64,000 nt of DNA from IMG/VR virus record IMGVR_UViG_3300045974_000067, positions 5,714 to 69,713 of that record; one strand, given 5' to 3'. Positions within the stretch are counted from its first letter, which is position 1. Each line of letters starts with the position of its first letter. This stretch comes from a virus. The notes below the pieces were generated by a model, which was given only the letters and a program-made list of their open reading frames with translations, was not told the DNA's origin and did no database searches. The position numbers and the translations under genes are program-made. Below, piece by piece: positions 7,617-59,025 of the stretch.

Positions 7617-9878
7617 TCATGAAAAAGCATATTCAGAATCAAGTACTAATGTAATATCTAAAGTACCTAATTCTATTCCACTTATATCAGCCTCTATATC
7701 TTTAACAATACTAGATAAAGGGTCTGATTGATATAGTTCTACAAATGTTTCTCTAATCACTCTAAATAGTTTAGGCATGTCAGCTAGTAAACAACCAAAT
7801 GAATCATGCACAGTAGTAATAGGAAAATCAGACCTATTAACAGCTAACATTAAATGTGCTGCATCAAGACTGTGTATAGCATTAGGACTAGCACCTTGGC
7901 TTTGTTTATTTTTACTTGGTTTACTATTCTCAATAAAGCATATAGCTAATTGTATTGTATTAGTATAATATCCAGTACTATTCCTTTCACCAGCAGGAGG
8001 TCCATATTGAATCCAAATCTTTTTAATGACACCTTCTGTATAATGCTGTACTACTGGAAAGTTAGTAATAGGCACATGCCAAGATAGAAACTTATTATTC
8101 TCTTCAGCTTTCTTACCAGCATTCTCAAACACTGATAATAATTGCATTGGACGCTTTAGCGAGAACTTACAATCCTCATATACTAATTTACCTAAATAAG
8201 CACCCCAACGATGTTCCATTGAGAATAGCTGCTCTATGCCATGTTTCCTAGAGTCATCTATAATTTGCTGTCCACAACCAAAAGCTGTAGAGCCATATGA
8301 TAATGTCATTACATTTCGTTTTGATATTTTTCTTCTATCTCTGGACTCTTTAATTCTATGCCAATATACACATGAGCATATTGTCATTAATAAATCATTA
8401 TCATTTTTGAATTTAATAATATTCTTAATAAGTTCTTTTCTACGATCTGATTTTAGTGGTGCTTCAGAGATTTGATGTTTAAGATCAGCTAATGTATCTA
8501 TTAGATTTTCACAGTCTTTTAAAGTTTCTTTATCTAATTGATCAACATCAAAATCAATAGCTTTCCAGACATGTTCAGCCACATACAAATAAAGATCACC
8601 AGGAGAATCTAACGGTACAAGATTAACGTATGGTGCTGTTATTTCATCTCTAGTTAATGCTGCTAAGTGTTGTTGTCCATTAGTAGAACCATCAACATAG
8701 GCTTCTAAATGTGATTCATACTCATACGGATCAATTACACCTGAGATAATATGTTCAGCATTCTGATACTGCCAGTATCTAAACTTAGATAATTCAACGC
8801 ATGCTGCTAAGAATTGCCAAGGTTTGTCTGCCTTCATCCATCCCTGATTTACTTTAGGACTCTCAGCATAACTTATTAATATCTCTTCATTATCTAGGCT
8901 CCAAAGCACTCTATCAGATAACGGTATTTTATCAGTCTTAACTCCTTCAATATTAGAATTACCAGCCCAATTAGATGCAATAGAAATTAATAGCCAATCA
9001 AAGCCTTCTTTAGTAATTGGTTTAGAATCAGCTCTAAGTAGTAATCCCTTGGCTAGGTCTGAGCCTTGATTATGTAAGTATGCTGTAGCTGGATATACTC
9101 TTGCACGAAAGTCTAGTGTGTATAAGTGATAGAAAGTTTTACCAATAAATCTTTTAGCAATATCTCCTATAGCTTTTGCTTCACGTATCTTCGATTGTTT
9201 TGCTTCAGGATTGTGCATTTCCCATATATCAGCAAATGCATCAGTCTTATTCCTTAACGCCCAAGCATAAATAGGATAGATTTCTTCATTAATAGTCCAG
9301 CCAACTTTCTGTAATTTATTAAGTGTATTGAATACTAAAGGATGAGTCTCAGGAGTGAGCTCTTTAAGAACATCTCTATCAGCAGTCTTTACCATCATTA
9401 CGCCTGTTTCATGCCTAGTAGTAATCCAAGGTGCGTAAGGAAATAGTGATGGTAACTTTTCAGTCTTGTCTAAACTTAGAGAATCCCATAGTGTACTGAT
9501 CTTATCTTCATTAAGAACCTCTATGACATAGGTTGCATGTCCATTTCCAGCTCTACCAAGAAGTACTTTAATTAGGTCTATTTCTTCAAATGAGTATAGG
9601 AGAAATGCACCAGCTTTAGCAGCCAGCGCACTATCTCTTTTCATCTTATTTTTATTACGAATATTATGTCCAATAGCGCTTATAACTTCTGTCATTAATA
9701 CAGTCTTACGGGCCACACTACGACCTACCCTTGTGTATAAGTAGAGTACTGAGATAGTGTGGTCTACTAGGTCTTCTGGATCTAAATCCTTTAAAAACTT
9801 AACAGGATTTTGGTGTGAGATCTCAAACTTTAACCTATTGTTTATTGAAGCAACTAATTTTTGTTTCGTTGGCTCCAT
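7617..9878 (-). CDS. Single-subunit (T7/T3-type) DNA-directed RNA polymerase, stand-alone copy, 753 aa
   Basis: DFRARVY, KPWQFLAAC, motif A DGSTNGQQH, DLY..VA, motif B RK.SKRNVMTLSYG, PNAIHSLDAAH, motif C VHDSF. Confidence 0.95.
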   Translation of the reverse strand: MEPTKQKLVASINNRLKFEISHQNPVKFLKDLDPEDLVDHTISVLYLYTRVGRSVARKTVLMTEVISAIGHNIRNKNKMKRDSALAAKAGAFLLYSFEEIDLIKVLLGRAGNGHATYVIEVLNEDKISTLWDSLSLDKTEKLPSLFPYAPWITTRHETGVMMVKTADRDVLKELTPETHPLVFNTLNKLQKVGWTINEEIYPIYAWALRNKTDAFADIWEMHNPEAKQSKIREAKAIGDIAKRFIGKTFYHLYTLDFRARVYPATAYLHNQGSDLAKGLLLRADSKPITKEGFDWLLISIASNWAGNSNIEGVKTDKIPLSDRVLWSLDNEEILISYAESPKVNQGWMKADKPWQFLAACVELSKFRYWQYQNAEHIISGVIDPYEYESHLEAYVDGSTNGQQHLAALTRDEITAPYVNLVPLDSPGDLYLYVAEHVWKAIDFDVDQLDKETLKDCENLIDTLADLKHQISEAPLKSDRRKELIKNIIKFKNDNDLLMTICSCVYWHRIKESRDRRKISKRNVMTLSYGSTAFGCGQQIIDDSRKHGIEQLFSMEHRWGAYLGKLVYEDCKFSLKRPMQLLSVFENAGKKAEENNKFLSWHVPITNFPVVQHYTEGVIKKIWIQYGPPAGERNSTGYYTNTIQLAICFIENSKPSKNKQSQGASPNAIHSLDAAHLMLAVNRSDFPITTVHDSFGCLLADMPKLFRVIRETFVELYQSDPLSSIVKDIEADISGIELGTLDITLVLDSEYAFS

Positions 9879-9889
9879 AGATACCTCTA

Positions 9890-9994
9890 TTAACTAATTA
9901 ATAAAACAAACATTTTAATTAGAATACTATATAATATCAAACTTACAATACTTAGTAAAGGTATTGTTATCATAAACTTAAATAATTTTCTCAT
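9890..9994 (-). CDS. Small hydrophobic membrane peptide (34 aa)
   Basis: Manual translation MRKLFKFMITIPLLSIVSLILYSILIKMFVLLIS; ATGA overlap with upstream ORF. Confidence 0.45.
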   Translation of the reverse strand: MRKLFKFMITIPLLSIVSLILYSILIKMFVLLIS

Positions 9995-39035: not shown

Positions 39036-39329
39036 CGATTTGTTAAACAGAATTCGTTAGATTCTGTCAATTTACTACAAAGCAAATATAGTTCATTTAA
39101 GTTTCCTATATTTGCTTTGTATAAATTCTGCATATTCCTATGCAGTCCAGACTATATCATCATCCCTAAGGATGTCGGGCGCTTCCACTGGACTCCCAGT
39201 GTACTCCTTTCGGATAGTCGTTGCACCTTACTGTTTTCACAGTCTTGGCTCAGGATTGACCGTTCTGGTTTTTCCCTGAGTTCACCCGATTGTCATTTAG
39301 ACATTACTGTCTAAAGCCTCTAATAAATA
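39036..39329 (-). ncRNA. Group I self-splicing intron, ORF-less, 294 nt
   Basis: P1: exon CCUU pairs with IGS GAGG (U-G at splice site); P7 AACGACUAU (39214-39222); S element GAUGAUAUAGUCUGG; P9 hairpins; terminal G; removal restores KQQNMVTL-YGAG in frame. Boundary could shift by 1 nt (Phe instead of Leu). Confidence 0.9.
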
Positions 39330-42300
39330 AAGGTCACCATGTTCTGCTGTTTGGCAGCTTTACGTAAATCTTTCTCAGTAAGTCCTAACTTTTGATTTAA
39401 TTTAATAAATCTAGGATCATTAAAAGTAGCATTAGCAATTTCATCGTATAGACGCTTCTTTTGGTCAGTAGGTACTACATTACTTAGGCTAGCTAACTGC
39501 TTATTTTTAGTAGTTAAAGCAATAATCTGTGCGCCACTACTAGAAGCATCTTGCTCAAGAGCAATATTAATACGATAGTTAGCAAGTCTACCCAGGCTTG
39601 CGGCACTGTAATCCCCTCCTAAGAATTCGTCTATTTTAGCTGTTTCTAATGCAAGTCTTAATAACTTTCCTTGTTCTTCTCCATCAATTTGTGCAAGAAG
39701 CTTATTCTCCAAGATAAATCGTATATCATTAGGTTTAGCTCTACGAATAGCATTACCAATAGCAATAAGATCTTTACGATGATCCATTGCTATTTGTTGT
39801 CTACCTAGAATAGATAATGAATTATGGCTACCTTCTAAAGCATCAGATAGTCCACCTATAAATCCACCTATTTGGTCTTGTAGATTATAAAAACCTAATT
39901 CACTAAAAGGCTTAGCTTGTGCAGTATTAAGAAATGGTCTGAATGTTTCACCTGATTGTGGCCCTATAAAGCCACGCTCGTATATACGGCCACGATGATC
40001 AATAAAAGGAGTATTACTAAATGACATATCTTTTTCACGTAGCCAGGACATAGCCTTAAGACGTTCATATGCATCTCCTCTTTCAACCATGTATTGTCTG
40101 TATATATTTAGATCATTATAATATTGTGCTTTACCTTTATCATCTTGAAAAGTAATTAATTTATTTATAAAGTCATGAAATTCAGGATCTACTTTATATT
40201 GTGCTTGTGAAGCCCAATTAAGAGCATCAGTCATATTCTTGTCGATAAGTTCTACAGGTAAGTCATTAAAGCTAGAAGTTGAAGTAATAGGTATACGAGT
40301 GTCTGTAAGTCCAAATATACCATCATCTATAAAATATGTCTTATAGCCTTCTTTAACTAATAATCTATTCTTATCTGTAGTAACACCTACACGTAAGCCT
40401 ACTTCTACTTTCCGTGTGAGTCTTGCATAATTTTGTATTCTAGGATCAGTTATCCTAAGATTAACACTAAAAGTATCATAGTAAGGGCCGAAGTATTGTC
40501 CACTCATACGACTCTTCATACGTCTTTTCTGTACACCAAAAGTCTCTAGCTCATAGAAACCTTTGTCTTTAGCATCATCTAACAACTTGACACCTAAAGT
40601 ATACCATTCATTCCTACTACCTCGATAGTTAGCAAGATTATATAAGTCACGTCCTAATGCTACAGCAAGTTGATCTCTATCAGGACTATCTGCTAATGAG
40701 AGTCTCTTAGCAAACTTTAAATAAAAATCTTTTAGATTCTGGTCTGTGAGTCTTATCTTTAATTTAACGGGTATCTTGTAATCTAAAATATTACGAAGCT
40801 GATTAGCTATTTTAGGTAAAGTTTTATCTTCCCATTTGTTTACAGCTTTAATATTAGCAATAAATGTATCATGTAGTTCTTGTAATTGTACAGGTCCAAG
40901 AACAGGATCAATATAATTAGCTTGTTTTAATTTAAATAGTAGATTAGCATCTTTACGTAACTGTGTTTCCATATAATCTGAAACATTCATTACATCAAAC
41001 TTAATCTGACCATTTAAAACAGCTTTTAAATTAGTCCATGCTTCATCATTTTCTCTAAATCTTCCAAATGTTATTCTTAAGTTATCTGCTATAGCAGCTC
41101 TTTCATTAATACTCATTGTATCTGCTAAGTCATTTACAAACTTAGTAATAAATTCTTTATCTTTTTGTTTAAGAACTATACTCTCATTAACTAATCTAAG
41201 ATTATTATTAAGTACACTAGGATTAGGTGCAAACATCCTAGTATCTTCATAACGACTAGTAATAGGATTGAACTTTAAGTTAGCTTCAGTAGGTGGTGTA
41301 TTTAGCACACGCGTCTTAGCAGCTTTCTTAGTACCTATTAAATTACCACGATAGTTTGTTAATGATAAAGTACCATCAAGTTCTTGTGTTTGCAATAAGT
41401 AGTATTGTTTAAGAGCAGCAGTCATTTCTGCATCACCAATAATTTCATCTGGTCTAGCAGCACCTAACTTAAGTGTATCTAACTTATCTTTAGCAAAAGC
41501 AAATCTACGAGTATCACCAGGTAAACTACCAAAGTCACTAGTAGTCATTTGATTAAGTTGTTTAATTCCTACATTAGCACCTGATGGTGTTATAAATTTA
41601 TCTAGTTGTAATTGACCACTTTGAAATTTCTGTAATCTATTAAGATCGCCAATATGCTTTATTTGTACTTCTTGTGGTTGTCTAAGTAGCCAGTCATTAT
41701 AGCTTTCTTTTAATGGTGATTGTCCATCATAAAAGGCTATTTCTTTATCAGTAAGTCCTGCAAGATTCCTTTTGCGTATCTGAGCAATACCTTCATTAGT
41801 ACCTAATTGATCATAGGACTTAGTAATAGGTATAGTTGTAGAACGGCAATACCAATGAGCAGGTGGCAAGTGTGCAGTATCTCCGACAGGATAAATATGT
41901 CCATCTCTGCTTGCACATAATGGTGTTGTACGAGAGTCTAATACTGCTACATATTGATAGCCATTTAAAATTTTTTCATTAGCTTTATAAACTTGATGAT
42001 CTGCTTGAGCATATACTGAAGTCATAGATGTTACAGTTAAACCATTAGCTTGATTTTTAGTAATATTAAAAGTACTCGATACAGTTTTAGCAATAGAAGT
42101 CTCATTGAGACCATCTGCAATACCTTTACGTATAATAGCTTCAATACGTATTCTTTCATTCTTGCCTATACCTACCCAACCTTCTTGCAATACTACATTA
42201 TTATATAAAGGTTGCTTAAGTACTACATTCTCTGCAATGCTTCTTGGAGGTTGCTTAGTACGCCAAATATTACCAACAGCTTTATCAATATTGTTAGTTG

Positions 42301-42571
42301 TGAAAGACACTTGATCTTTAAATAAATCTAATAAAGATCTCGAATGCACATTATACGTATTACTAATTGTCTTTTCTATTTCAGTATTTAACTTAACTTT
42401 AAATTGATCAAAAGTATCACCTTGTAGCTTAGATGAACGGATTAATCCATCTACTCTAACAGCATGACCATCAATAATTAACTCTAACTTGCCTTTTGTA
42501 TTGTCAGTATAGAGTCTAATCATTGCTGCTCTATCTACAGCTTTATCATAAATTTGTGTGTTGGCATTCAT
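39330..42571 (-). CDS. MuF (SPP1 gp7-like head morphogenesis)-T7-type RNA polymerase fusion, exon 1; spliced product 1538 aa
   Basis: N-terminal MuF motifs YVAVLDSRTTPLCASRDG..Y, PPAHWYCRST, SYNDWLLRQ; polymerase motifs IDHRGRIY, EQDASSSGAQ, LYDEIA, RKAAKQQNMVT. Confidence 0.9.
40753..40771 (-). promoter_or_regulatory. Class A promoter-like motif inside the MuF-RNAP gene
   Basis: TTATCTTTAATTTAACGGG, one mismatch to TTATCATTAATTTAACGGG. Confidence 0.5.
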
Positions 42572-42618
42572 AGCAACCTCTGACGGTCATTAGTTTAACT
42601 TAATAGAGACCGAATCTA

Positions 42619-44247
42619 TTAAGCTGCTTTAAGATTTGAGACATTATTCATCATACTATTCATTTGATTTACTTTATCAGCATAATTAGGATCAGAATTA
42701 GGCTTATTAACTACTTCGTCTTGAGTCATTTCAACTTGGCCTTCTTCATCGTCATAATCAGCAGGTACCATATCGTTCTGCTTGAGTAGCATAAGCCACA
42801 ATGTACGAGGAATAAGACCATTCTGATACCACTCTGTAGCGAGCCTAAGCCAATCGGCACCTAGAGGCACAGGATTAAAGTCAGCAGATAACTGAAATTC
42901 CACATCTGTAGATTTAAACTGTGTACCATAGCGCCAATTTAACATAAATGCAATAATATCAGCCATTTGATTAGAGACTTTAATATTAAGTGTTCCTAAT
43001 TGTGCTGTCTGGGCTGCATTACGAATTTCTAATGCTACACCTGATTGCATATTCTCAGGGCTAAGCATACGAATACCTAATCTAGCTAATTCTTCTATAG
43101 TTGCCAATATAGCTCTGTCCATGTCTTGTAAAGCAGCTGTAGGTGTATCCAAGACAGAAGCTGAATCACCTTGTCTAAGCTTAATCCAAGAACCAAGCCC
43201 AGCGTCAACAATAGCACCGAATTCTTCATCTGTAATATCTGCCGCAATAACAGGTGTATAAGTAGCTGCACCTAAGAGTAAATGATTACGACGACTAACT
43301 TTATTATACAATGCAACTTCACGGTCAATAAGCGGTGTAAGCATAGGCTCAATAATATCAATACTACCATTAAGAGGCCACGCTGGTATAACTTTTAGAC
43401 GCTCACCATTAGAAGTAATATTTTCAATAGTCTCTATTAACTCAAATCCACCATTACCACTTGGAGATGGGCCATTAGAAGCACCTACTGTATATTTCTG
43501 TTGAATAACACCATTGACTACTGGTATAGCTACATTTTGAGTAGGCTTTTGATACTTACGAATACGATAGTATCCATCTACTATTTCATGTACCCATACT
43601 GTATCTAATAGTGTAGGGTGAAACTCATTAACACCATATGTTTCTTCATAATTTCTAACAATAACTCGTTCAAGTATTTGTGAACCATCTACAGAGGCAA
43701 CGCTAAGTTTCCAATTAATAACTGACTCAGCATTCCATAATACAGGATATGGTTTAATTGCTAATACATCTTCTCTAGTCATTCCTTCAGTATTTTCTAC
43801 TTTAGGATAATCTACGTATACCCAAGCACGGCTAGTCTGCATCTCTTCCCACAATGCGCGATCTAAGAATGATACTAAAGGAGAACTATCTTGTGCAAAT
43901 GCATCCATAATCCATTGGTAAGCATCTGCAGGTGCTGTATCAGGTAATTTAAGTTGTGGTTGCTTCCTAAGTAGTCCACCAATAATTATTCGTGCATATT
44001 GTGTTACAATACCAGGTAGCTCAGCTTCTGCTTTAAAGAAATTATACTGTGTTTGTGTCATTGATTGAGAGAAAGGAATAAGCAAATTTGAGAAGAATAG
44101 ATTGTCAAGAATACCGTCAAAGTCTTTAACGAATCTTTCTCCATTACAAACTGCACGACTCTTTTCCCATAATTGGTTTATTGATTCGTAAGATGGACAA
44201 GGATCACATACAGTACGTCCTTGTTGAGCGGCATTCACAACACTCAT
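42619..44247 (-). CDS. Portal protein (DUF4055 type)
   Basis: 542 aa after terminase; WVYVDYP, AESVINW, IPAW, SGVAL motifs. Confidence 0.88.
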   Translation of the reverse strand: MSVVNAAQQGRTVCDPCPSYESINQLWEKSRAVCNGERFVKDFDGILDNLFFSNLLIPFSQSMTQTQYNFFKAEAELPGIVTQYARIIIGGLLRKQPQLKLPDTAPADAYQWIMDAFAQDSSPLVSFLDRALWEEMQTSRAWVYVDYPKVENTEGMTREDVLAIKPYPVLWNAESVINWKLSVASVDGSQILERVIVRNYEETYGVNEFHPTLLDTVWVHEIVDGYYRIRKYQKPTQNVAIPVVNGVIQQKYTVGASNGPSPSGNGGFELIETIENITSNGERLKVIPAWPLNGSIDIIEPMLTPLIDREVALYNKVSRRNHLLLGAATYTPVIAADITDEEFGAIVDAGLGSWIKLRQGDSASVLDTPTAALQDMDRAILATIEELARLGIRMLSPENMQSGVALEIRNAAQTAQLGTLNIKVSNQMADIIAFMLNWRYGTQFKSTDVEFQLSADFNPVPLGADWLRLATEWYQNGLIPRTLWLMLLKQNDMVPADYDDEEGQVEMTQDEVVNKPNSDPNYADKVNQMNSMMNNVSNLKAA

Positions 44248-44249
44248 GA

Positions 44250-44483
44250 TTAACCTTTCCGTTTAAGCATTGCACTAAATTCAGATTGAGTACCTTCAAA
44301 TACTTTACCTGTAGAGTTATTAGTGGCTTTAATACCTGTGTTAGTAGGTATAATATACCAATCAAAAGGATTAGATTCTGCATTAGTAAGAGTAGTAGCT
44401 GTCTTGAGTTTGTTTGTATCAAGAATAACATGCTCTGGTGCAGGCTTAACCTTTTCTTTAACATCTAACTTAAAATTTGCCAT
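44250..44483 (-). CDS. Hypothetical protein
   Basis: ORF track; W.I...GIKATN..TG.VFEG...EF. Confidence 0.65.
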   Translation of the reverse strand: MANFKLDVKEKVKPAPEHVILDTNKLKTATTLTNAESNPFDWYIIPTNTGIKATNNSTGKVFEGTQSEFSAMLKRKG

Positions 44484-44492
44484 ATAATTGCC

Positions 44493-44588
44493 TTATAATA
44501 ATAAACCAAGAAACACAATAATTAGTCCTATAATTATTGTCCAGAATGCAACAGGATTCTCTTCAATATACTTCAAGACAGGCTTCAA
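44493..44588 (-). CDS. Small membrane peptide (31 aa, TTG start)
   Basis: AAGGAG RBS; MKPVLKYIEENPVAFWTIIIGLIIVFLGLLL. Confidence 0.45.
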   Translation of the reverse strand: MKPVLKYIEENPVAFWTIIIGLIIVFLGLLL

Positions 44589-44602
44589 TCAAAACTCCTT
44601 AC

Positions 44603-44776
44603 TTAATTAGAGAATTCCTTATCTTTTGCTTTAGCAATCTTAAAAGAAGTAGCGGCTAACTGCCCATTATGACGTATTTCTTCAAATATAAGTGTGCAAT
44701 TATATTTTGTTAATGCATGCTTAACTTCTTGTTCACATGCATGTACAGCCATTTGCTCTAAGGATTCTATCTTCAT
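44603..44776 (-). CDS. Small hypothetical protein (57 aa)
   Basis: TAATG coupling to upstream micro-ORF; MKIESLEQMAVHACEQEVK... Confidence 0.55.
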   Translation of the reverse strand: MKIESLEQMAVHACEQEVKHALTKYNCTLIFEEIRHNGQLAATSFKIAKAKDKEFSN

Positions 44777-44820
44777 TACTTCTTAGGTGGCTTTCCACCA
44801 CCGCCCTTTTTACAAGCCAT
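44776..44820 (-). CDS. 14-aa Lys/Gly-rich micropeptide MACKKGGGGKPPKK
   Basis: TAATG stop-start overlaps at both ends and GAGG RBS 9 nt upstream. Confidence 0.55.
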   Translation of the reverse strand: MACKKGGGGKPPKK

Positions 44821-45191
44821 TATCTTGACCTCAAGTAGTTTAAATAATAATTTGAAGTTAATTCTTCTCCTTCAAATATATCTCTTGTAGCATAAAAATA
44901 GTAATTATTACCTATGAAATATAATACCATATTAGGCAATCTAGCATGATTACTATATCGTCCGCCTGGAGTACGCTTTTTGCCTATTCTAGCAGAGCAT
45001 ACTTCTTCACCTGCTTTAAAGCTAGCTTTAGCAAACAATCCTTTGCCTTCAATAGGAGAATCTGCTACATATACATTATATTCTTTCTCAAAAGGTATTT
45101 GATCATATGTTTGTTCAGCTATTGAACGTGCTTCTTTATCAGTAATCCCAATTGCAGCAAGACACGAAATGTAACTTTCATAATCTGTCAT
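44820..45191 (-). CDS. SET-domain protein-lysine methyltransferase
   Basis: SPIEGKGLFA....GE, RYSNHA..PN, ATRDI.EGEELTSNY. Confidence 0.88.
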   Translation of the reverse strand: MTDYESYISCLAAIGITDKEARSIAEQTYDQIPFEKEYNVYVADSPIEGKGLFAKASFKAGEEVCSARIGKKRTPGGRYSNHARLPNMVLYFIGNNYYFYATRDIFEGEELTSNYYLNYLRSR

Positions 45192-46582
45192 TATATTAGC
45201 CTATTAGTTCTCTTAACGGCTACAGAACTCTTGTTAATTGGATATAAATACTCAATACCATATCTTACACCATCAGAGTAATGCTCAATACTTTCAGTCT
45301 TATCAATTGTAGCAGTGTCTTGATTATTATCAACCCATTTAGTACGCTCTAAGGATGTGATTAAGCCTTGACATTTAGAAGATACATATAAATTAACTTC
45401 ACCAGCTGCTGTCATAAGTCTAGCATTAACAGCATTAACACTATCAACAATAGGAGGAGATTTACTTCTTGCTCTGACGATAAAGCCATGGCGTTCTAGT
45501 ATAGTAAAGTCTGTTTGGCCTACAGGTGCAGATGTTTTATGTGCTCTGCCTGTAGGATCTGGATATACAAATATTTTACATACTTTAAGTTTATAATCAT
45601 CATGTCCTTGCCTCTCGTAATTAGGCCAGAACTTAGCTCTAATTGCAATAGCTAAAGTTTCTGTATCAGGATGACCTTTAAATTCATCTATGAAATGTAC
45701 TTGAGCGCCTCTGACAGCAAAAGCAGCAGAGCACTGTAAATTAACGTTAAAGTCAATACACACATGAACATCCTCACCAGGCTCATCTCTGCTACCTTGT
45801 CTAAACCATTCCAAATCATTTCTAACATGCACTTTACGCTTAAAACAATAAAAGATTGAATTGCCTGAATCTTCGAAAGTAGCTTTGTACTCTCTGTTAT
45901 ACTTAAGAGGATCAATAGTATGCCTGATCTTTTCAATTTCATCAGGGTCTAGATAAGGACTAGAGTGATAATCATAATGATAAGCTTTCCATTCGTTGTC
46001 TAGCTCCTGTCTGTTGTACATATCAAAGAAATAGTCATAACCTTTAGGCGTACTAATTGTTAATGATCTACCAGGACTTTTAGCATTATAAATCTTAGCC
46101 ATCTTAGGAGACCAGCGGGTAGATATACATGGCTGTATAATACCTTCCCAAGCTTCTTTAAGTCCATCACCTTTAGTCCAGTCACGTACTTCGTCATTAA
46201 CAACAAAGTAAGCACCTTTACCACGTAGCCTTCCTACAGCCTCGTAAGAAACAAGACTAAGTATTACATTAAAAGGAAACCATAAACGACCCATTTCTTT
46301 AGAATGCTTTATTACATAATTTTCCATACCTAATTCATACATAAGTAATGGAAAATAAATATCAGTTACCTGTGTGTAGGTAGGTGCTATAATAAATACT
46401 TGTTTATTAGGCACTGAAGGTTCTAATTGCATAAGTTCATTGCAAGCAGCACTTGCAGCTACAGCAGCAAAATAACTTTTACCCCAACCTCGACTAGCAG
46501 CTACTACAGCATTTCTAATGTTACGTGTAACAAATAGATCAGCAAATACTTCAGATTGTCCTGGGTGCAGTTCTATTGTCAT
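45191..46582 (-). CDS. terL: Terminase large subunit
   Basis: Walker A ASRGWGKS, LRG, Walker B VVNDE, ISTPKG, REY.A.F, IDFN, YPDPTG, HYSDGVRY. Confidence 0.95.
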   Translation of the reverse strand: MTIELHPGQSEVFADLFVTRNIRNAVVAASRGWGKSYFAAVAASAACNELMQLEPSVPNKQVFIIAPTYTQVTDIYFPLLMYELGMENYVIKHSKEMGRLWFPFNVILSLVSYEAVGRLRGKGAYFVVNDEVRDWTKGDGLKEAWEGIIQPCISTRWSPKMAKIYNAKSPGRSLTISTPKGYDYFFDMYNRQELDNEWKAYHYDYHSSPYLDPDEIEKIRHTIDPLKYNREYKATFEDSGNSIFYCFKRKVHVRNDLEWFRQGSRDEPGEDVHVCIDFNVNLQCSAAFAVRGAQVHFIDEFKGHPDTETLAIAIRAKFWPNYERQGHDDYKLKVCKIFVYPDPTGRAHKTSAPVGQTDFTILERHGFIVRARSKSPPIVDSVNAVNARLMTAAGEVNLYVSSKCQGLITSLERTKWVDNNQDTATIDKTESIEHYSDGVRYGIEYLYPINKSSVAVKRTNRLI

Positions 46583-47121
46583 TCTCCTACACCTTTATAG
46601 GCTGGTTCTTCTTCATCAGGTAAATTAAAAATAGACTTGTTTTTAACTTCTGCTAATTGAGCGCCTATCTCAGACAATGTTTGCATCTCTAAAGATTCTT
46701 CTTTGCTAGGCAAATAAACAGTATCAGCTTCAGGTACTTCTATTTTATCAAATTCTTTTAATGTTTCTTGATTTATAGTTAAGCCATTCAATCTAATTTC
46801 CATTGGTCTAATAGCTGTAGCACTAATTTCAACTGATTCAGGTGCTCTTGCATAACCATACCTAAGTAAGTCTGTAATAAGCTTTTGTTTGGTACTCAAT
46901 AATGCTGCATATTTGACAGAAGAATAATTATCTCTTTGAATACCACTAGGGTAATACTGGAGATCATAAATATCTTTCTCTAACTTGTCAAACATTTTAA
47001 CCATTTCTTCAATAGGATCGAATCCTAGCTCTTGAAGCTTCTTATAAGCCGCTTTGGAGACTATCGTCTTATTGCCGACATTGACTCGCCTAATAATTGG
47101 CTGGCTAATATTGTCTGTCAT
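46579..47121 (-). CDS. terS: Terminase small subunit (putative)
   Basis: Directly upstream of TerL with ATGA overlap; LGFDPIEEM...LLRYGY pattern. Confidence 0.7.
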   Translation of the reverse strand: MTDNISQPIIRRVNVGNKTIVSKAAYKKLQELGFDPIEEMVKMFDKLEKDIYDLQYYPSGIQRDNYSSVKYAALLSTKQKLITDLLRYGYARAPESVEISATAIRPMEIRLNGLTINQETLKEFDKIEVPEADTVYLPSKEESLEMQTLSEIGAQLAEVKNKSIFNLPDEEEPAYKGVGE

Positions 47122-47332
47122 AATGTTCTCCTACGAACTTCTTCTGATCATCCGGAAAATGTCACCCACAAAGCGTCTCTAAATAGACACCATTTTAAAA
47201 TTCTAAACAGTGACCTAAGAAACATCTCAAATTAAAATAACCAAAGATTAGTCTACATGATCACTTTCATTTACTTCAATAAATAAATCCTTTTAATTGA
47301 ATATATTAAAGAGACCAACTAAAAGTACATTT

Positions 47333-58635: not shown

Positions 58636-59025
58636 CTATTTGCCATCCATCTAATTTAGCACGTTGCATCCATAAGTCTGATAATTTATAATATCGTTCA
58701 GCCTCTTTAAGATCTCCATCTAAAGCCGCTAAGGAACCTAACTCTGAATACTGATTTGATTTAGTAATACATTCTTCTATACTATAGAATTTACTCATTT
58801 TAGTATCAGCCTACAAAATAAAATAATATAAGAATTATCCATAAATGAATCATTTCATAATTACTCATTTATTTTCTGCATCCATTTCAATTTTCAACAT
58901 CTCTAAAACACCAATCAATTCACAGACCCTTAAATCGTTGTAGCAGGGTTTGTATATGACGGCACGAATTTCCTGTATTAGCTTCTCCGCTGGCCCATCA
59001 GCGAACTTGAATCGGATTATGTTGC

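Follow-up and report, generated by a model that had tools for sequence, protein, structure and literature searches.

A probable polybasic micro-gene of phage head and packaging modules, found next to a SET-domain gene in the terL-portal region of a virus genome

We analysed a 64,000-nucleotide (nt) stretch of DNA, bases 5714-69713 of the 69,713-bp IMG/VR virus record IMGVR_UViG_3300045974_000067, the completeness of which is rated 100% (the whole stretch is called the window hereafter, and all positions refer to it), with a focus on a 14-codon open reading frame (ORF), the micro-ORF, that follows a SET-domain gene between terL, encoding the terminase large subunit, and the portal gene. The minus strand carries all genes of the terL-portal region, in the 5' to 3' order terL, SET, micro-ORF, three ORFs of 57, 31 and 77 amino acids (aa), and portal (Table 1), and one-base TAATG overlaps are found at three consecutive junctions, namely, terL/SET, SET/micro-ORF and micro-ORF/57-aa ORF. 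An earlier description made from the letters of this DNA (the sequence-only reading) had placed the SET gene between terL and portal; family scans support the identities of terL, SET and portal, but SET does not abut the portal gene, since the three small ORFs separate the latter from the micro-ORF. The same description proposed that the SET protein methylates the peptide of the micro-ORF. This headline mechanism fails, and the hidden ORF is the more interesting object: as judged from the in-frame recurrence of related ORFs, the signs of selection on their peptides and the enrichment of Shine-Dalgarno (SD)-like motifs ahead of them, it is very probably a genuine translated gene of a family of polybasic peptides. 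It is also very probably not a conserved partner of SET, since neither was found with the other in any other locus examined.

Direct reading of the minus strand confirmed that the micro-ORF, preceded by a GAGG ribosome-binding site, exactly fills the gap between its neighbors by stop/start overlaps, as the sequence-only reading had stated. It opens with ATG GCT TGT AAA AAG, continues through GGC GGT GGT GGA and AAG CCA CCT, and ends with AAG AAG TAA, thus specifying the peptide MACKKGGGGKPPKK. The SET gene ends in AGA TAA, the final A of which (44820) doubles as the A of the micro-ORF ATG, and the A at 44776 is both the end of the micro-ORF TAA and the start of the ATG of the 57-aa ORF. Among the 26 same-strand junctions of the window with gaps of 12-150 nt, eight are nearly filled by a small ORF, and only the micro-ORF has a one-base overlap at both ends. 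Two other gap-filling small ORFs lie at 58798-58864 and 9878-9990 on the minus strand; their products, MSNYEMIHLWIILILFYFVG and the 34-aa MRKLFKFMITIPLL..., respectively, both resemble single-pass membrane peptides. When the 13 sense codons of the micro-ORF were scored against the codon usage of the 39 long ORFs of the window, they reached +7.3 bits, compared with 4.6 +/- 3.5 bits for real in-frame 13-codon windows and -4.0 +/- 3.6 bits for stop-free off-frame windows of real genes, only 0.17% of which reach 7.3 bits; this score is matched by 0.4% of stop-free first-order Markov sequences and by 0.12% of shuffles of its own bases. The G+C count of the micro-ORF is 7/13 and 8/13 at codon positions 1 and 2, against 5/13 at position 3, and richness at the first two positions is expected if the glycine and proline codons are selected.

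Pond and wetland metagenomes of four studies (runs X1-X4) contain the same phage with an identity of at least 99%; none of the sequencing runs listed as containing it is of RNA. Contigs from two other studies span the micro-ORF without differences (X2 record 6, 44713-45400; X3 record 9, 44668-44834), so the frame is not an assembly error. Contigs of three other studies (at least 99% identity) show no variation inside the micro-ORF, and hence give no information on the ratio of nonsynonymous to synonymous substitution rates; one difference, an A>G change at 44614 inside the 57-aa ORF, was seen in X2.

The micro-ORF is a member of a family that we define here by an N-terminal M-[AG]-[CY]-K, a C-terminal K-P-P-K-K-stop and a length of 10-17 residues. 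A search of IMG/VR with the nucleotide pattern ATGGSNTGYAARN{3,33}AARCCNCCNAARAARTRR, which stands for M-[AG]-C-K, 1-11 free codons, K-P-P-K-K and a stop-like codon, returned 57 stretches with 34 distinct peptides, e.g., MACKPKGKKPPKK and MGCKKGKKPPKK. The pattern allowed 31 gap lengths, 11 of which keep the frame, and it permitted a TGG ending; all 57 matches are in frame with a true stop and none of them uses TGG. A composition-matched control, for which we took the pattern's complement, had no match in IMG/VR, nor did an exact back-translated KKGGGGKPPKK pattern, which was too strict. Genomes of bacteria and archaea, 596 billion bases in total, contained three matches to the pattern, two of them in-frame micro-ORFs behind AAAGGAG on short contigs of metagenome-assembled genomes (Campylobacterales and Bacteroidales) and one out of frame in Pedobacter. 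MACKKGGGGKPPKK fits the pattern exactly, its nearest relative being MACKKKGGKKPPKK of locus L334, with which it shares 12 of 14 residues; its interior K-G-G-G-G keeps to the K/R/G/P/S/T rule described below, and the four-glycine run is unusual for the family.

Relaxing residues 2 and 3 gave 97 stretches with 100 regular-expression matches, which comprise 79 clean ORFs and 21 that are out of frame, interrupted or Trp-ended. In the clean ORFs, residue 2 is mostly A (49) or G (29), with V once, and residue 3 is mostly C (59) or Y (17), with A twice and V once. We removed copies with an identical 150-nt context, leaving 73 ORFs for the analysis of selection. From base composition one would expect 38.2% of the 305 free residues of these ORFs to be K, R, G, P, S or T and 34.2% to be hydrophobic or acidic; the observed shares are 92.1% and 2.6%, respectively. 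Twelve peptides are each specified by 2-8 distinct DNA sequences, and in the 13-residue class (n=32) the third codon positions are near maximum entropy, positions 1 and 2 are fixed, and the unconstrained codon 6 stays Lys. The 70 non-redundant members with C or Y at residue 3 have 10-17 aa, come from contigs with a G+C content of 0.32-0.60 and use all three stop codons, and an SD-like motif precedes 57 of them, compared with 261 of 1971 random ATGs (81% vs 13%). The residue bias, the synonymous variation and the enrichment of SD-like motifs together indicate a translated gene with purifying selection acting on the peptide. Pfam and PHROGs hold no model for the family, of which only the 23-25-aa forms found in relatives (see below) were long enough to test, and those forms matched no model in either collection. 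Our literature search, which did not extend to supplementary small-ORF lists, found no description of the peptides ('KKPPKK' together with 'phage' occurred in no article), and the main text of a review of phage small proteins contains no capsid or packaging peptides (PMC11323111). The family is thus apparently undescribed, and is kin in kind to small phage proteins and to polycationic DNA-binding peptides.

Table 1. Features of the terL-portal region of the window
Feature	Position (strand)	Size	Remarks
terL, terminase large subunit	45191..46582 (-)	463 aa	TAA overlaps SET ATG; phrog_2 E 4.6e-28; Pfam Terminase_6N 22.3 bits
SET-domain protein	44820..45191 (-)	123 aa	Pfam PF00856 40.5 bits
T_TTA_AAC heptamer	44838..44844 (-)	7 nt	In SET-frame register; -1 frame open onward through micro-ORF
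GAGG, SD-like motif	44829..44832 (-)	4 nt	8 nt ahead of micro-ORF ATG
Micro-gene MACKKGGGGKPPKK	44776..44820 (-)	14 aa	Member of M-[AG]-[CY]-K...K-P-P-K-K-stop family
Terminator-like hairpin GGTGG..CCACC + T-run	44786..44812 (+)		Antisense to micro-ORF, formed from its Gly/Pro codons
57-aa orphan ORF	44603..44776 (-)	57 aa	ATG overlaps micro-ORF stop; weak SD of its own
31-aa ORF	44493..44588 (-)	31 aa	TTG start; AAGGAG upstream; C-terminal half hydrophobic; weak XhlA match below cut-off
77-aa ORF	44250..44483 (-)	77 aa	Just upstream of portal; kept in some relatives
Portal protein	42619..44247 (-)	542 aa	phrog_145 E 3e-46; DUF4055

The genomic context of the family was described from 54 non-redundant loci by way of the two co-oriented ORFs closest to the micro-ORF on either side, which amount to 99 proteins upstream and 83 downstream. 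Among the upstream ones, the most frequent PHROG families are those of terL (phrog_2 in 11; also phrog_6672, phrog_5653, phrog_38, phrog_10250 and others), followed by the major head protein (phrog_283 in five), the small terminase subunit terS (phrog_1482 in five), portal and scaffold, and the commonest downstream ones are terL, five portal families, head closure and adaptor; these counts are not to be summed, as one protein may match several related families. Judging from these neighbors, the family appears to occur here and there in head and packaging modules, in many tailed phages that are not related to one another. The upstream gene lies within 20 nt of the micro-ORF in 45 of 70 cases, with 21 of those overlapping or abutting it, and the next gene is more than 100 nt away in 31 of 62 cases and within 20 nt in only 12. 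A close upstream gene combined with a distant next gene argues for a trans-acting product and against the micro-ORF being a leader or relay. The micro-gene of the window shares the family context, with its GAGG at -8, its TAATG overlap with the upstream gene, and its location between terL and portal.

The terL protein of the window has 984 homologues at E<=1e-10, the best with 69% identity, and an exact 8-mer search with it found no close relatives. Using an alignment of 28 homologues, we selected the best 80 of 366 confirmed IMG/VR loci and the best 80 of 493 metagenome-contig loci, i.e., 160 terL-relative loci (L010-L169), with some contigs occurring in both sets. By tblastn, none of these 160 loci contains the SET protein, the 57-aa ORF or the 31-aa ORF, and in eight the portal gene is immediately preceded by a homologue of the 77-aa ORF, with 33-42% identity. 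The portal gene follows terL at a distance of 354 to 4830 nt in 15 loci and was not found within at least 3.5 kb in 75; the other 70 were too short to judge. The variable distance makes the terL-portal interval a variable slot; the interval is an accessory-gene hot spot in this lineage, and SET, which all of the sampled relatives lack, is such an accessory gene.

Several terL relatives carry micro-ORFs of the kind seen in the window. In L112, MACKPKKPKPKK starts on the terL stop as TAATG; in L111, an ORF MACKKKK... begins 9 nt past the terL stop with GGAGG ahead of it and is cut by the contig end; and MGCKSKKPPKK in L043 lies 405 nt downstream of terL. In L302, a family micro-ORF lies about 360 nt before a portal gene, the product of which is 66% identical to the portal protein of the window. 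MAYKKKGGGKK occurs in L071 and its duplicate L168, and MYGKTKKPVKPPKK in L119, L120 and L125. A group of longer micro-ORFs of 22-25 aa, MP.G.GTYGTK[RV]GRPPKK..GGKKK, is present in 12 loci (among them L073, L076, L078-L082 and L084-L087; e.g., L076:5019-5090), where the peptide is kept through many synonymous changes and the stops abut the next gene, three of these downstream genes being phrog_14910. All of the lysine-rich tiny ORFs of the terL relatives have SD-like motifs, and nearly all abut or overlap the next start. Counting small ORFs rich in K/R plus G/P by composition alone gave no separation between the terL loci (32) and G+C-richer control loci (46); the small polybasic ORFs of the two sets are separated only by strand bias (27 vs 5) and by recurring motifs.

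Deposited phages gave little further material. A blastn search with two micro-ORF loci for cultured phages returned nothing close, and tblastn with the 23-aa relative found no match, possibly owing to the low-complexity filter. Ralstonia phage DU_RP_II, Methylophilales phage Venkman and Pelagibacter phage HTVC010P, reached through tblastn of two neighboring terL proteins, are without the pattern. Phage Venkman (MT375522.1) has, at L392:661-741, an unannotated 26-aa K/P-rich ORF, MKPMKRPMKKSPMKKGKK..., which starts on the gp70 stop within a 90-nt annotation gap and falls outside the KPPKK-stop family. The deposited phage nearest by terL DNA is Bacteriophage DSS3_VP1 (L394, MN602266.1, Naomviridae), with 65% identity over 428 nt; it contains no KPPKK-stop ORF, and its annotated terL is in two pieces with a small gene between them.

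As to the other genes of the region, Pfam and PHROGs scans gave no family match for the 57-aa and 77-aa ORFs, and a search of 5.8 billion proteins with the 57-aa ORF found only itself and one 98% variant. The antisense hairpin of Table 1 is the sole terminator-like site in 42500-47300, where shuffles average 2.1. About 290 nt upstream of it lies a promoter-like match, at 44470-44499 on the plus strand; such matches overall are no commoner than in shuffles. The minus strand at 39320-42571 encodes a 1083-aa Mu-F-like head-morphogenesis protein (PF04233 E 2.4e-14, phrog_241 E 1.4e-54), residues 990-1060 of which, approximately, show a weak match to single-subunit RNA polymerases (PF00940 E 0.009, below the cut-off; phrog_414 E 1.5e-8).

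The 123-aa protein encoded upstream of the micro-ORF is a genuine SET domain and probably an active enzyme, as its motifs and predicted fold indicate. The identification in the sequence-only reading is borne out by a Pfam score (E 3.9e-10) well above the curated PF00856 cut-off of 22.4 bits, by complete motifs and by the fold. In an alignment with 41 stand-alone homologues, the invariant or near-invariant columns S45, G49, G51, R73, T74, G77, R78, N81, H82, N87, E110 and Y115 are all kept by our protein. GxG, (R)Y.NH..PN and E(L/I)T..Y are the cofactor and catalytic motifs of SET domains, including the catalytic Tyr, and the corresponding GxG (G49, G51), R78-Y79, N81-H82, N87, E110 and Y115 are present here in columns that are invariant or at least 90% conserved among 42 homologues. 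The AlphaFold2 model has a predicted local distance difference test score (pLDDT) of 94.4 and a predicted template modelling score (pTM) of 0.85, and a Foldseek search gave 180 PDB hits with E<=0.001, every listed one of which is a SET domain, with template modelling (TM) scores of 0.5-0.63 and a Foldseek probability of 1.00 for both the MLL1 SET domain and vSET. Likewise, the family profile matched solved structures at E-values from 1e-14 to 1e-7, among them MLL1 SET (1.5e-14), vSET (1.6e-10) of PBCV-1 (Paramecium bursaria chlorella virus 1), SETD8 and EZH2.

An exhaustive HMMER search found 905 cluster representatives of SET homologues at E<=0.001, the best non-self ones only 47-48% identical, and a word-indexed search of 5.8 billion proteins returned only the SET protein itself. 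Most members of this phage family form the C-terminal domain of proteins of 270-300 aa (71 of 75 delimited SET ORFs), which sit in (podophage) structural modules, and the gene that follows SET in 75 other phage SET genes usually encodes a protein of at least 200 aa and starts at -4 to +1. Many SET proteins of the 270-300-aa type have Cys-Gln-[Q/V/E/L] at or near the C-terminus (P0162, P0175, P0181, P0185, P0200, P0201, P0204, P0205, P0207, P0224, P0225 and others). Further SET loci were sought by DNA motif scan; the SET alignment offered no sufficiently conserved stretch for an alignment-based locus search. The phage protein resembles vSET (A612L) in being a minimal stand-alone viral domain of about 120 aa and shares with vSET and MLL1 the GxG, NH..PN and E..Y motifs (Foldseek TM 0.63 when normalised on vSET). 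However, it differs from vSET and from the eukaryotic SET domains of MLL1, SETD8 and EZH2 in its prokaryotic host, which has no histone H3, and in a 40-residue helical N-terminal extension that is common to the phage-only family. The protein adds a new member to a known enzyme family, in which no substrate is known for the phage branch.

The sequence-only reading regarded the SET protein and the peptide as an enzyme-substrate pair, in which lysine methylation would tune a DNA-condensing virion peptide. In this genome the two genes are indeed adjacent and translationally coupled by TAATG, the peptide has five lysines, no catalytic motif is missing from the SET protein, whose SET fold is predicted with confidence, and tiny peptide substrates encoded beside modifying enzymes do exist, as in the case of microcin C7, where the precursor MccA is made from a peptide gene of fewer than 20 codons next to the gene of a modifying enzyme. 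However, the co-conservation expected by that reading was not found. The SET profile, which as a positive control was detected in 127 of 128 SET loci, matched none of the 160 terL relatives and none of 100 micro-ORF loci, and no M[AGS][CY][KR]...[KR][KR]-stop micro-ORF was present in the 128 SET loci; likewise, PF00856 was absent from five micro-ORF phage records (three of them at least 90% complete), and the peptide pattern from five SET phage records (all at least 91% complete). Each partner thus occurs without the other in every other genome examined, unlike the logic of microcin C7 and of ribosomally synthesized and post-translationally modified peptides (RiPPs), and we know of no SET-dependent RiPP. 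The likeness of the peptide to histone H3 residues 8-18, which the sequence-only reading had pointed out while allowing for coincidence, reflects a common low-complexity K/G/P content: A-R-K-S/T is the context in which SET enzymes target H3K9 and K27, and such a context is absent from the family consensus M[AG][CY]K.K.KKPPKK, from MACKKGGGGKPPKK and from 45 distinct family peptides. Moreover, the phage SET family, with its 905 members, occurs without the peptide and so must have another substrate. We therefore consider an enzyme-substrate pair quite improbable. A still bolder version, in which a phage 'protamine', i.e., a polycation of 10-17 residues that is made late and is co-packaged with or acts on DNA, has its lysines methylated by the coupled SET in this one phage, is a long shot; if true, a bacterial virus would have a histone-tail/writer pair in minimal form, with one of the smallest conserved phage genes known.

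The micro-ORF might instead act in cis, as a relay or arrest leader cistron that delivers or times ribosomes for the 57-aa gene, its translation being slowed by the polybasic, Pro-Pro-containing nascent chain and its released peptide being functionless. Within the window it forms an exact bridge between two genes, and the SD of the 57-aa gene itself is only weak; at termination the whole peptide would still be in the ribosome tunnel with K-P-P-K-K adjoining the stop, and conservation at the level of the peptide is also typical of arrest peptides. Bacterial leader and arrest peptides such as ErmCL, TnaC and SecM are likewise very short ORFs with a conserved peptide, the chain of which stays in the tunnel. 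However, the family is unlike them in that its members usually close a run of cistrons and are far from the next gene according to the spacings given above, and in that the downstream genes differ and are unrelated to one another. The fold of the RNA is not significant either, and there is no Rfam match. On balance a leader role appears unlikely. An RNA element at the micro-ORF was tried as a separate candidate and rejected (fold z -1.23, with 24 of 200 shuffles folding equally well, and nothing in Rfam at E<=1).

A -1 programmed frameshift at the T_TTA_AAC heptamer would yield a 138-aa SET protein with a lysine-rich tail (...NLLEVKIMACKKGGGGKPPKK), and the heptamer does stand in the correct register, with the -1 frame open for 17 codons before the ATG. 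However, heptamers of this type abound in the A+T-rich genome (59 among 17,657 codons, with 7 of the 58 window ORFs having one in their last 30 codons), the same fold z value gives no convincing stimulatory structure downstream, the zero-frame SET tail YLNYLRSR resembles the tails of homologues, e.g., CFNYLNTRSKR, and in relatives that lack SET the same micro-ORF comes with an SD and an ATG of its own, so we find a frameshift hardly credible. The micro-ORF was also rejected as a frameshifted SET C-terminus on the ground that, in the tails listed, none of the 149 homologues is K/G/P-rich. Just as hard to credit is a chance open frame or a functionless vestige of a deleted gene. The ORF is very short, low-complexity sequences recur by chance, and this one was picked after the fact from many windows, but the in-frame matches set against none for the control pattern, the purifying selection on the peptide with synonymous variation, the excess of SD-like motifs and a codon score so rarely reached by the nulls all speak against it.

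The explanation that we favor, with reasonable but not strong confidence, is that the micro-ORF is a genuine polybasic micro-gene of phage head and packaging modules, next to which SET was inserted as an accessory gene, and that the peptide acts in trans as a polycation. The older arrangement would have been terL followed by the micro-gene, as in L112 and L111, and SET may have been inserted between terL and the pre-existing micro-gene with the TAATG overlaps preserved; SET would then most likely methylate another phage or host protein. Without its initiator Met, the peptide of the window is A-C-K-K-G-G-G-G-K-P-P-K-K, i.e., a 13-residue chain that has five lysines and is free of acidic and hydrophobic residues. 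Once released, it could act in trans as a small polycation that binds DNA, and would most likely neutralise or condense DNA while the latter is being packaged or once it is in the capsid. The side idea of the sequence-only reading, a basic virion peptide that condenses DNA, would fit this composition and the head and packaging context. Polyamines are present in phage heads, and in that of T4 also internal proteins and peptides; in-vitro packaging systems need spermidine. The core of an AT-hook is R-G-R-P flanked by basic residues; this RGRP core is absent from the window peptide and present in the 22-25-aa micro-ORFs of relatives (...TKRGRPPKKGGKKK), for which there is no Pfam hit. Some members of the family carry S/T-P-K-P-P-K-K, which resembles the SPK(K/R) units; SPK(K/R)-rich tails of sperm H2B are described as packaging sperm chromatin (PMC9903204).

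Polycationic peptides and tails, such as the SPK(K/R) tails of sperm H2B and H1, AT-hooks and protamines, are like the family short, K/R-rich, Gly/Pro-containing and unstructured, and the adenovirus core peptide mu, the T4 internal proteins and peptides and the polyamines of phage heads may also be likened to it. However, the family differs from them in being a free-standing gene product of 10-17 residues rather than a tail or a cleavage product, and in its conserved M-[AG]-[CY]-K N-terminus and K-P-P-K-K C-terminus, and the window peptide is without RGRP or S/T-P-K-K.

Several observations weigh against this explanation or parts of it. The family rests on a short low-complexity motif, the search pattern having fixed 9 of about 13 codons. 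Within the fetched flanks, an ORF of the M[AG][CY]K type is found in only five of the 160 terL-relative loci, others having different polybasic micro-ORFs, and such a sporadic distribution indicates that the micro-gene is not a core gene. None of six deposited records of cultured phages that were checked has a family member. The antisense terminator-like hairpin, formed from the Gly4 and Pro codons, could partly explain the local G+C richness. The adjacency and coupling of SET to the micro-gene are real in this genome, so that methylation of its peptide is possible there, adjacency being all that speaks for it. Finally, that the peptide is a DNA-binding polycation of the packaging or virion pathway, as its composition and neighborhood suggest, is a tentative proposal, which we hold with less confidence than the existence of the gene.

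For SET, which belongs to a phage family of about 900 clusters, these results remove an attractive but unsupported substrate. As for the micro-gene, genes of 10-17 codons are too short for gene callers and, to our knowledge, also for the catalogues of small phage genes published so far; lysine-rich peptides of this size are in addition cut up by trypsin, and so would be invisible to standard annotation and virion proteomics alike. A peptide family under purifying selection that recurs in the head and packaging modules of phages with different terminase and portal families, and with a G+C content of 32-60%, suggests that virion assembly or DNA handling involves a component not recognised so far.

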